From: a virus
Lineage: Duplodnaviria; Heunggongvirae; Uroviricota; Caudoviricetes
Length of the DNA: 22,774 nt
Strand: one strand, 5' to 3'
IMG/VR virus record: IMGVR_UViG_2675903366_000010
Location: 1-22,774 of that record
In this document: piece by piece, positions 18,038 through 18,796 of the stretch
Layout: each line of letters starts with the position of its first letter
Numbering within the stretch: position 1 is the stretch's first letter
Translations under genes and position numbers: made by a program
The notes under the pieces: model-generated
Database searches by the model: none
What the model was told of the DNA's origin: nothing
What the model saw: the letters and a program-made list of their open reading frames with translations, nothing else

Positions 18038-18796
18038 ATGAGTTGTAAGCCAATGTTATCATCTTGTATTGGGGTGGTTATGAAGGATGGTGCACTGCTC
18101 AGGAGTTCTTCACTTTTTATTGCCTACATGGGATGCCTTGGATGGGGGAGTGCTTATTTCTATGGATGGGGTACTTCTTTTTACTACGGCTTCCCATGGT
18201 GGATTGTAGGTGCAGGTGTTGATGATGTTGCCAGAAGTTTATTTTTTGCAGTTATCGTCATTGCTATATTTCTTATCGGTTGGGGTATTGGTGTTGTATT
18301 CTTTTTCGCAGTGAAAAGAAAACATTCTATGCAAGAGCTAAATGTATTTCGCCTTTATTTTGCTGTGGAATTATTGTTTGTGCCGGCAATTATTGAGTTT
18401 TCTATATTGAGACAGAAGATTCAGGTACCTCTTTTGCTACTGTCAGCAGCGATTGCGCTGGCGGTTACAATTTCGATAAGATCTTATGGGCGATTTTTAT
18501 CGGTATCATGCTTCTATGATAAGCCATTTATAAAAAAACATTTTTTTGAGATTGTGATGATTGCTTTTGTGGCATATTTTTGGCTTTTTTCATTTCTGAC
18601 AGGATATTACAAACCGCAGTTTAAGAAAGAATATGAAATGATTAATTATAATGATGGTTGGTATTATGTTCTTGCTCGTTATGATAATTGTCTGGTTTTG
18701 TCTACTTCTTTCAATGCAGGTAGTAAAAGGTTTGTCATTTATCAATCAGCACAAGATAAGAATCTTCAGGTTGATATTGTAAGGACCAGAATTTAA
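18038..18796 (+). CDS. Hypothetical polytopic membrane protein (252 aa, at least 4 TM segments, aromatic/Gly-rich N-region), AT-rich late-region cargo
   Basis: Long ORF in strongly AT/T-rich DNA; hydrophobic runs FFAVIVIAIFLIGWGIGVVFFFAV, LLLLSAAIALAVTISI, IVMIAFVAYFWLFSFL; alternative ATG starts at 18053 and 18080. Confidence 0.6.
   Translation: MSCKPMLSSCIGVVMKDGALLRSSSLFIAYMGCLGWGSAYFYGWGTSFYYGFPWWIVGAGVDDVARSLFFAVIVIAIFLIGWGIGVVFFFAVKRKHSMQELNVFRLYFAVELLFVPAIIEFSILRQKIQVPLLLLSAAIALAVTISIRSYGRFLSVSCFYDKPFIKKHFFEIVMIAFVAYFWLFSFLTGYYKPQFKKEYEMINYNDGWYYVLARYDNCLVLSTSFNAGSKRFVIYQSAQDKNLQVDIVRTRI

Follow-up and report, generated by a model that had tools for sequence, protein, structure and literature searches.

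A TfpB-family membrane protein gene in the Shiga toxin gene position of a lambdoid prophage

What is the role of a membrane protein gene that occupies, in a lambdoid prophage, the place where an Stx1a phage carries its Shiga toxin genes? The question is raised by a stretch of 22,774 nucleotides of Caudoviricetes DNA (IMG/VR record IMGVR_UViG_2675903366_000010, positions 1 to 22,774; this whole stretch is called the window), in which the list of open reading frames (ORFs) has an entry at 18038..18796 on the plus strand. An earlier description made from the nucleotides only (the sequence-only reading) regarded it as an acquired gene for an AT-rich membrane protein of the late operon and considered its function not assignable. 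The ORF is the first gene of a two-gene, AT-rich cassette inserted between the late promoter and the nanS-p esterase gene, and its product belongs to the TfpB/STM1630 family. It is very probably a moron of that family and not a lysis gene. The overall explanation that fits best is a self-contained moron whose inner-membrane protein acts on the host envelope, to which we give slightly better than an even chance.

The cassette and its place in the late region

The features of the slot, all on the plus strand, are as follows (aa, amino acids; dN and dS, non-synonymous and synonymous substitution rates; AF2, AlphaFold2).

17845..17887, +, lambda-type late promoter pR' and qut site, left border of the cargo slot (homology, mEpX1 annotation, alignment)
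17918..17945, +, degenerate remnant of a tR'-like terminator, where homology to phage 434 starts (alignment to 434, folding)
18013..18062, +, two overlapping sigma-70-like promoter motifs of the cassette (consensus scan, conservation in paralogues)
18080..18796, +, TfpB/STM1630-family inner-membrane protein gene, 238 aa (RefSeq start, homologue lengths, dN/dS, AF2 model, PF27470)
18882..19040, +, TciB-like small membrane protein gene (DUF3927), 52 aa, TTG start (PF13064, E 3.4e-14; phrog_1470)
19097..19285, +, doubtful 62-aa ORF, a 'putative membrane protein' in phage 434 (434 annotation)
19226..19252, +, strong intrinsic terminator, end of the cassette (terminator scan, folding, 434 annotation)

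Both borders of the slot can be placed by comparison with other phages. Upstream lie a lambda-type Q gene (PF03589) and a pR'/qut block that is common to HK97, mEpX1, and many other phages; homology to lambda-Q phages stops at about 17880-17887, and a promoter and qut site are annotated at the matching place in mEpX1. The pR' elements in the window are TTGACT (-35) and GAAACT (-10, at 17868-17873). The -10 sequence has lost its critical first T; GAAACT is also present in the plaque-forming phage 2B8, and mEpX1 has TAAATT. Several positions of the qut region also differ between the window and mEpX1. Downstream of the cassette are the 616-aa DUF1737-SASA-DUF6645 esterase NanS-p, a class II holin, a lysozyme, and a spanin, so that the gene does lie between Q/pR' and nanS-p as first described. 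In an Stx1a phage, it is stx1AB that immediately precedes the gene for this 616-aa esterase, and the window becomes homologous to Stx phages from the esterase start; the description of the slot as Stx-equivalent is therefore correct. Among the window ORFs no toxin gene occupies the slot of this prophage, and in mEpX1 Q/pR' leads straight to the holin with no cargo between them.

The length of 252 aa first given for the protein, which counts from the ATG at 18038, was rejected on comparison of start codons across alleles and homologues. The start is almost certainly at 18080, predicting 238 aa, because this is the RefSeq start, nearly all homologues have 237-238 aa, the ATG at 18038 is out of frame in an allele that is 94% identical, other homologues have in-frame stops a few codons 5' of the start, and transcription from either of the promoter-like motifs would begin 3' of 18038. 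The tfpB-like ORF is a real gene under strong purifying selection: compared with alleles from E. albertii and Escherichia sp., dN/dS is 0.05-0.10 (dS 0.24-0.33, dN 0.013-0.028), and the architecture and motifs of the family are maintained in relatives with as little as 20-29% identity.

Several features identify the gene as foreign to its surroundings. Its G + C content (GC) is 36.1%, with 39% T and 30% GC at third codon positions (GC3), compared with 50.8% for Q, 55.6% for nanS-p, and a window mean of 47%, which bears out the AT- and T-richness first reported. The tfpB-like gene, the TciB-like gene, and the strong terminator travel as a unit, and the same cassette stands behind late regions of both the lambda-Q and the Q82 type. 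In its own signals the cassette has a terminator after the second gene, and for a promoter it has consensus motifs that are conserved across paralogues. Together with the occupation of the stx slot, the copies found outside phages, and the absence of the cassette from phage 434B, these features agree with the acquired module, or moron, proposed from the sequence. As in classical lambdoid morons such as lambda bor and lom, HK97 gp15, and stxAB, a dispensable unit of foreign composition, with a promoter-like motif and a terminator, is set between essential modules. The classical examples have defined activities (serum resistance, adhesion, exclusion, toxin), whereas none has been assigned to the prophage TfpB gene.

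That the cassette is dispensable can be seen from phage 434B. The region of the phage 434 record that is replaced in 434B (41277-45846) includes the cassette, and the genome announcement describes 434B as a clear-plaque phage in which DLP12 sequence stands in place of ~5.5 kb containing Q, the lysis region, and the late promoter. As 434B is viable without it, the cassette is not needed for plaque formation.

A strong intrinsic terminator had been placed directly after the ORF. The terminator is present at 19226-19252, but it lies 430 nt downstream of the tfpB-like ORF, past the TciB-like gene; directly 3' of the ORF there is none, the 85-nt spacer after the stop codon folding with a z-score of +0.2 against shuffled sequences. 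The true terminator has an 8-bp stem with 7 G-C pairs (hairpin 19226-19244) followed by T8, and folds at -17.5 kcal/mol (z -3.9); none of 200 shuffled sequences was as stable. It is annotated in 434 and was found in 65 of 73 IMG/VR loci, the IMG/VR sample consisting of the best-scoring 80 of 187 relatives (loci L054-L133). The TciB-like gene, annotated in both RefSeq and phage 434, follows this tfpB allele in all 73 of these loci that have enough sequence; its PHROG is described as 'TciB-like inhibition of cell division or resistance to colicin'. Annotation of the region 19097-19285 is inconsistent, with 434 having the 62-aa ORF on the plus strand enclosing the terminator and RefSeq a frameshifted pseudogene at 19121-19362 on the minus strand; the 62-aa ORF has no PHROG or PADLOC match.

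Two sources of transcription can be proposed from the signals upstream of the gene. The first is the pair of overlapping promoter candidates, TTGACG-17-TTATGA (18013-18041) and TTGTTA-18-TATCAT with an upstream TG (18033-18062). A motif TTGAC(G/T)-N17-T(T/A)ATG stands ~40-65 nt 5' of the start codon, and the TTGAC-type motif is kept in paralogues with 57-59% protein identity (on the plasmid of enterotoxigenic E. coli (ETEC) that encodes heat-labile toxin (LT), and in the iro island) despite diverged surrounding DNA. The second is pR' itself. The 434 counterpart of the tR'-like hairpin (locus L002, 5838-5863) is an annotated terminator downstream of a Q82-type late promoter and folds at -13.3 kcal/mol (z -3.4); in the window the hairpin has been altered by three substitutions and the loss of 3 nt, and its folding energy is -4.7 kcal/mol (z +0.7). 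In the IMG/VR loci, decay of the hairpin goes with a lambda-type pR' (46 of 46) and an intact hairpin with a non-lambda late promoter (Q82-type, 434-like; 32 of 32). As a result, a polymerase leaving pR' in this prophage would meet its first strong terminator at 19226, past the cargo, and only in the lambda-Q variant does the cargo lie between pR' and the first strong terminator. Because the tR'-like hairpin has decayed, Q-independent transcription from pR' would cover both cargo genes and stop before nanS-p.

Family membership and predicted structure

The gene, its family, and its position are already known from public annotation (phage 434, RefSeq, Pfam PF27470, PHROG 1521). The 238-aa protein is 100% identical to the product of phage 434 gene 68 (CPT_434_68, 'putative membrane protein', OL657226) and to RefSeq WP_001299184.1 ('STM1630 family protein'), and 98% identical to gp58 of the temperate phage 2B8. 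PF27470 (TfpB; PF27470.1) is precomputed on 108 of 108 homologues and on a cluster representative (P0001) that is 100% identical over its full length, and phrog_1521 matches with an E-value of 2e-154. Local Pfam and NCBIfam scans of the ORF, with copies that are without the PF27470 model, gave no match. The homology search that had been proposed as a check thus found a gene already catalogued and no functional match. To our knowledge, what has not been described before, and is incremental, is the assembly of its contexts, the corrected start, the link between terminator decay and Q type, and the association with LpxR.

Close counterparts of the cassette are found in phages 434 and 2B8, both of which have the tfpB-like gene, TciB/DUF3927, the strong terminator, nanS-p, a pinholin, and a signal-arrest-release (SAR) endolysin. 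Phage 434 differs from the window in its Q82-type antiterminator, its intact promoter-proximal terminator, and the LpxR gene nearby; the window and 2B8 share lambda-type Q/pR' and the decayed terminator, and are without LpxR.

The family is small, with 72 representative clusters that reach an E-value of 1e-3 among 1.84 billion proteins, and its members come from several orders. Its members in Enterobacterales are from Escherichia, Shigella, Citrobacter, Cronobacter, Klebsiella, Enterobacter, Salmonella, and Yersinia, and distant members (20-29% identity) come from Neisseria, Conchiformibius, many Pasteurellaceae, and Moraxella; beyond Enterobacterales, all named members are in animal-associated genera (Pasteurellaceae, Neisseriaceae, Moraxella). 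The prophage protein has the family architecture of ~240 aa, an N-terminal AY.YGWG..YYG(F/Y)PWW motif, several transmembrane (TM) helices, and a C-terminal YY(V/I)L...(L/I)(L/I) beta domain. By blastn, 1197 of 5426 complete E. coli genomes (22%) have a family member, and an allele at least 99% identical to this one is present in 679 of them (12.5%), including O157:H7 and O111 strains. All 80 of the best-scoring IMG/VR loci encode a protein 100% identical over its full length. The identical E. coli prophage gene is also carried by a 3-kb contig from a Veillonella sp. metagenome-assembled genome (MAG) (JAIITD010000172.1, locus L026), almost certainly a binning contaminant.

The prediction of TM topology and the structure search, both suggested when the gene was first described, give a more detailed picture of the protein. 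At least four TM segments and an aromatic- and Gly-rich N-terminal region had been claimed. Both hold: there are four strongly hydrophobic segments on the Kyte-Doolittle scale, and the N-terminal region, with 13 aromatic residues and 8 Gly in 37 residues, is predicted to form a long helix that is membrane-competent on the Wimley-White octanol scale. The AF2 model (pLDDT 77.6, pTM 0.71), made from an alignment of 61 sequences, has five helices (residues 10-36, 47-78, 89-111, 116-136, and 155-181) and a five-strand beta domain (184-235); a model from 33 close sequences had a pLDDT of 56.8 and was discarded. What had been described as a soluble C-terminal tail is thus modelled as a distinct beta domain of ~55 aa. 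Across 33 family members, the mean number of Lys and Arg residues is 4.0 in loop 2 and 4.3 in loop 4, and 1.0 each in loops 1 and 3, which favours an N-in, C-out topology. This arrangement would leave the N-terminus in the cytoplasm and turn towards the periplasm the beta domain, the conserved GFPWW loop, and that end of TM2 at which D48 and R52 lie.

Residues conserved throughout the wide family are mainly aromatic, Gly, and Ala, plus R52 and R91, and no catalytic-type constellation is evident among them; the predicted protein therefore probably acts by binding an envelope component rather than by catalysis. No solved structure was matched in a profile search of PDB sequences or in fold searches against solved and viral structures. 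Homology to a holin, an antiholin, or another known phage membrane protein, which would have changed the reading of the gene, was sought in Pfam, NCBIfam, PHROGs, PADLOC, PDB sequences, and three fold searches, and neither these nor any characterised protein were matched, in agreement with the earlier view that function could not be assigned from sequence.

Genomic neighbourhoods of the family

Outside this type of prophage, relatives are found in the settings listed here (ExPEC, extraintestinal pathogenic E. coli; IS, insertion sequence; RTX, repeats-in-toxin; L numbers denote loci).

Yersinia: immediately after NinG and Q
E. coli, 68% allele: Q, methylase, TfpB, LpxR (convergent), PmrD-like gene, nanS-p, DUF1378, DUF826, holin
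ETEC plasmids, 59% allele: divergently oriented to eltAB; STb and IS elements close by
ExPEC, 57% allele: next to iroB/iroC and a remnant of bor
Salmonella: flanked by sseJ and frmR/adh, no phage genes present
Citrobacter rodentium: syntenic chromosomal site, with a fragmented LpxR in place of the Salmonella sseJ
Klebsiella, distant subgroup: between a SRAP gene and umuDC-like genes
Glaesserella parasuis (L033, 5955-8017, minus strand): immediately beside cdtC-cdtB-cdtA
Mesocricetibacter MAG (L031, 5888-9454, minus strand): immediately beside an RTX-type HlyD/HlyB exporter pair
Avibacterium, Neisseria arctica, Aggregatibacter, Pasteurella canis, Rodentibacter, Conchiformibius: lone gene amid housekeeping genes, with no constant neighbour

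TfpB-family genes repeatedly end up in acquired, virulence-associated DNA. No consistent gene partner was seen in the Pasteurellaceae and Neisseria loci examined, and the lone copies in chromosomes, virulence plasmids, and pathogenicity islands imply that the protein needs neither a phage nor a dedicated partner. A recurrent neighbour is the gene for LpxR, an outer-membrane lipid A 3'-O-deacylase, which lies within ~1.5 kb of TfpB-family genes in three gene orders and orientations. It is ~1.35 kb upstream of tfpB in 31 of 32 loci of 434-type prophages (L002 3666-4625, minus strand); convergent and 250 nt downstream in the prophage with the 68% allele (L134-L136, about 5970-6919, minus strand), where the PmrD-like gene is also found; and divergent and 180 nt upstream in C. 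rodentium (L137 3863-4823, minus strand). This recurrence may reflect functional coupling or the co-residence of acquired genes, and is a lead, not proof.

The name of the family is explained by its matches at pilin loci of Moraxella. In tblastn searches the protein matches M. bovis with an E-value of 1e-19 (27% identity, residues 9-236) and M. equi and M. lacunata with 2e-16 to 6e-16; a representative (P0135) whose first 70 and last 85 residues share ~81% identity with M. bovis TfpB is matched at 4e-18 among the 1.84 billion proteins. The 261-aa homologue of M. bovis (L043) is flanked by two inverted pilin C-terminal cassettes; that of M. lacunata (L046) has on one side the gene for the Piv invertase and a silent pilin cassette, and on the other the type IV pilin gene that is expressed. 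M. equi and M. oblonga also have a pilin gene no more than 1.5 kb away. The Piv and type IV pilin genes were verified in the Moraxella loci. This arrangement is the tfpQ/tfpI inversion region, whose internal ORF is reported to have been named tfpB (Fulks et al. 1990). Moraxella TfpB resembles the prophage protein in its AY.YGWG...GYPWW..V....IARSL motif, its helix pattern, and its C-terminal YYIL..(I/L)(I/L) beta domain, and differs in being embedded among pilin cassettes next to Piv. The copies of M. lacunata (L046 4974-5561), M. equi, and M. oblonga (L044, L052) are shortened compared with the 261-aa M. bovis gene and have lost the C-terminal beta domain, which suggests that tfpB is decaying in these species. 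The PilB-like protein of Acinetobacter that is also called TfpB is unrelated.

Experimental data within the family are those on Salmonella STM1630. Like the prophage protein it has 238 aa (46% identity over the full length), and its gene too is AT-rich, acquired, and beside virulence genes; unlike the prophage gene, it lies in the chromosome outside any prophage, between steB and sseJ, lacks a TciB partner, and differs in its upstream region. STM1630 is bound by H-NS and expressed in medium that induces Salmonella pathogenicity island 2 (SPI-2) and inside macrophages, clusters with SPI-2 and PhoP-type genes in the transcriptomes of regulator mutants, and is silenced in ST313 by two single-nucleotide polymorphisms in its promoter. 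Attenuation of signature-tagged mutants has been reported in calves and chicks, and a clean deletion in strain 4/74 raised intramacrophage replication with normal growth in LB.

Further genes of note were seen elsewhere in the window. Its lowest GC (33.8%) is found near 7750 and not in the cargo ORF; it belongs to a 293-aa ORF directly downstream of the N gene (7649-8530, minus strand), which matches phrog_12139, has no Pfam or PADLOC match, and in its last 20 residues weakly matches a PHROG of Nun-like termination factors (E 7e-5). This ORF looks like another moron. A 158-aa ORF at 9203-9679 (minus strand), in the rex/hex position directly downstream of the cI-like repressor gene (9604-10236), matches phrog_2651 and has no PADLOC match. 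Two adjacent anti-repressor-like genes of the Ant/ORF6N-P22_AR type are present in the nin region (14869-15549 and 15618-16346, plus strand).

An envelope role and its alternatives

A mechanism can be suggested that brings these observations together. In the lysogen, the tfpB-like gene would be transcribed from its own sigma-70-type promoter. In the lambda-Q variant, the decayed tR'-like hairpin would also let Q-independent pR' transcripts cross the cassette and end at 19226-19244, and after induction Q-modified polymerase would raise transcription of the cassette further. The protein would insert with its N-terminus inside and show the aromatic- and Gly-rich face of TM1, the first loop, and TM2, together with an SH3-like C-terminal beta domain, to the periplasm. 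Its most likely role would be that of a lysogenic-conversion factor that remodels or tunes the envelope of the host bacterium in an animal host, rather than one in lysis or morphogenesis. A role at the envelope or in host interaction is favoured because of the Salmonella data, the animal-associated genera, and the recurrent virulence and LpxR neighbourhoods; taken by itself, we put this part at about an even chance. The choice of a specific partner is much less certain. Lipid A and lipopolysaccharide (LPS) remodelling, on the LpxR/PmrD axis, is at best an unlikely candidate, and a type IV filament machine likewise has at most a slim chance.

A number of points weigh against this explanation. 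Expression in the lysogen is deduced from sequence motifs alone, and read-in from pR' independently of Q may be weak owing to the loss of the critical first T in its -10 element GAAACT. The topology of the C-terminus is moderately supported, since the membrane-proximal C-terminal segment is itself basic; the structural model is of medium confidence and has no fold match; and the proposal of binding rather than catalysis rests on the absence of conserved polar residues. The toxin, LpxR, and iro neighbourhoods may be mere co-residence of AT-rich acquired genes in hot spots, and such neighbours are missing from many loci. In Salmonella the phenotypes are mild and in part contradictory: the hypermotility of STM1630 mutants in a 2014 screen was not among the phenotypes confirmed by clean deletions in 2015, and no macrophage phenotype was seen in strain D23580.

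Prophage inner-membrane morons that act in exclusion include P22 SieA, T4 Imm, and HK97 gp15, and a similar role in superinfection exclusion or anti-phage defence, with the membrane protein blocking DNA entry or receptor function either alone or with the TciB-like peptide, has a small but real chance of applying here. A prophage-borne polytopic inner-membrane protein with a promoter-like motif and a terminator is of the expected kind. So too are its constant partner, from a PHROG linked to inhibition of cell division or colicin resistance, and the dispensability of the cassette for lytic growth, and the allele is widespread and near-invariant in the complete E. coli genomes. However, no PADLOC model matched the tfpB-like, TciB-like, or 62-aa ORF at E-values up to 1, a negative that covers catalogued defence systems, and the family includes stable single chromosomal genes outside prophages in Salmonella, Avibacterium, Neisseria, and Aggregatibacter. 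The Salmonella orthologue, moreover, is regulated with virulence genes and has host-related phenotypes, and conservation of the N-terminal motif from one order to another is unlike exclusion proteins, which tend to diversify.

Less probable again is an accessory role in a type IV filament system, such as a type IV pilus, a competence pseudopilus, or type II secretion, in which the protein would contact pilins or the inner-membrane platform in the manner of TfpY/TfpZ or of phage pilus inhibitors. The member that gave the family its name lies inside an invertible type IV pilin segment, and pilin genes are close by in two further Moraxella species. Moraxella, Neisseriaceae, and Pasteurellaceae are naturally competent, pilus-using groups, and the named hosts beyond Enterobacterales fall in them; one paralogue adjoins eltAB, whose toxin leaves the cell by type II secretion. 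Nevertheless, no pilin motif was found within 5 kb in any enterobacterial, Pasteurellaceae, or Neisseriaceae locus, and the truncation of the copies in M. lacunata, M. equi, and M. oblonga indicates that tfpB is dispensable in those species. The comparison with the FimB-like proteins TfpY, TfpX, and TfpZ of P. aeruginosa has two sides. These proteins, encoded next to pilin genes, are of similar size (~235-245 aa) and polytopic; their N-terminus is in the cytoplasm and belongs to a helix bundle, and their C-terminal domain is beta-rich and lies in the periplasm. TfpY-like proteins cross the membrane with three TM helices and carry a larger domain of mixed beta-sheet, whereas the prophage protein has five helices and a 55-aa five-strand domain; by this description it falls outside the TfpY/FimB-like group, and the resemblance is one of analogy only.

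It is very unlikely that the protein helps AB-type or RTX toxins encoded next to it to be exported or released, or protects the cell that makes them. Such a role would suit the occupation of the stx slot and the position of relatives beside eltAB/STb, cdtABC, the RTX-type HlyB/HlyD pair, and the effector gene sseJ, but the slot of this prophage holds no toxin, the orientation elsewhere is divergent or convergent to the toxin genes and not operonic, the toxins are unrelated and take different exit routes, and many loci have no toxin nearby. A lysis-timing function, as an alternative holin, an antiholin, or a lysis regulator, is suggested by a membrane protein in the late unit downstream of Q/pR' and upstream of the pinholin, SAR endolysin, and spanins, but is largely excluded and was rejected: 434B forms plaques without the cassette, a complete canonical lysis cassette (pinholin, SAR endolysin, spanins) is already present, most family members are outside phages, nanS-p and strong terminators separate the gene from S-R-Rz, and, compared with a holin as defined here (~60-150 aa, 1-4 TM helices, a holin-family match, next to an endolysin gene), the protein is far larger at 238 aa, has five TM helices and no holin family match in Pfam or PHROGs, and is encoded 2.8 kb upstream of the class II holin gene (21637-21843) that does sit directly before the endolysin gene.

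As an object the gene is not a discovery, and the remaining interest is in the function of its family. Few uncharacterised cargo genes are as common in the lambdoid prophages of E. coli as the tfpB-like gene, which sits in the position of the Shiga toxin genes and is strongly conserved; its relatives adjoin genes for LT, cytolethal distending toxin (CDT), SseJ, salmochelin, and LpxR. A far-reaching possibility, to which we give little weight, is that the TfpB family is an unrecognised class of inner-membrane envelope modulators spread by mobile elements among animal-associated Proteobacteria, with the prophage copy a true lysogenic-conversion factor that has been rewired to Q-independent expression in lambda-Q prophages and is possibly coupled to lipid A/LPS remodelling or type IV filaments. 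Phages 434 and 2B8 are genetically tractable, and a function established there could apply throughout the TfpB/STM1630 family, also to the Salmonella gene for which colonisation phenotypes have been reported.

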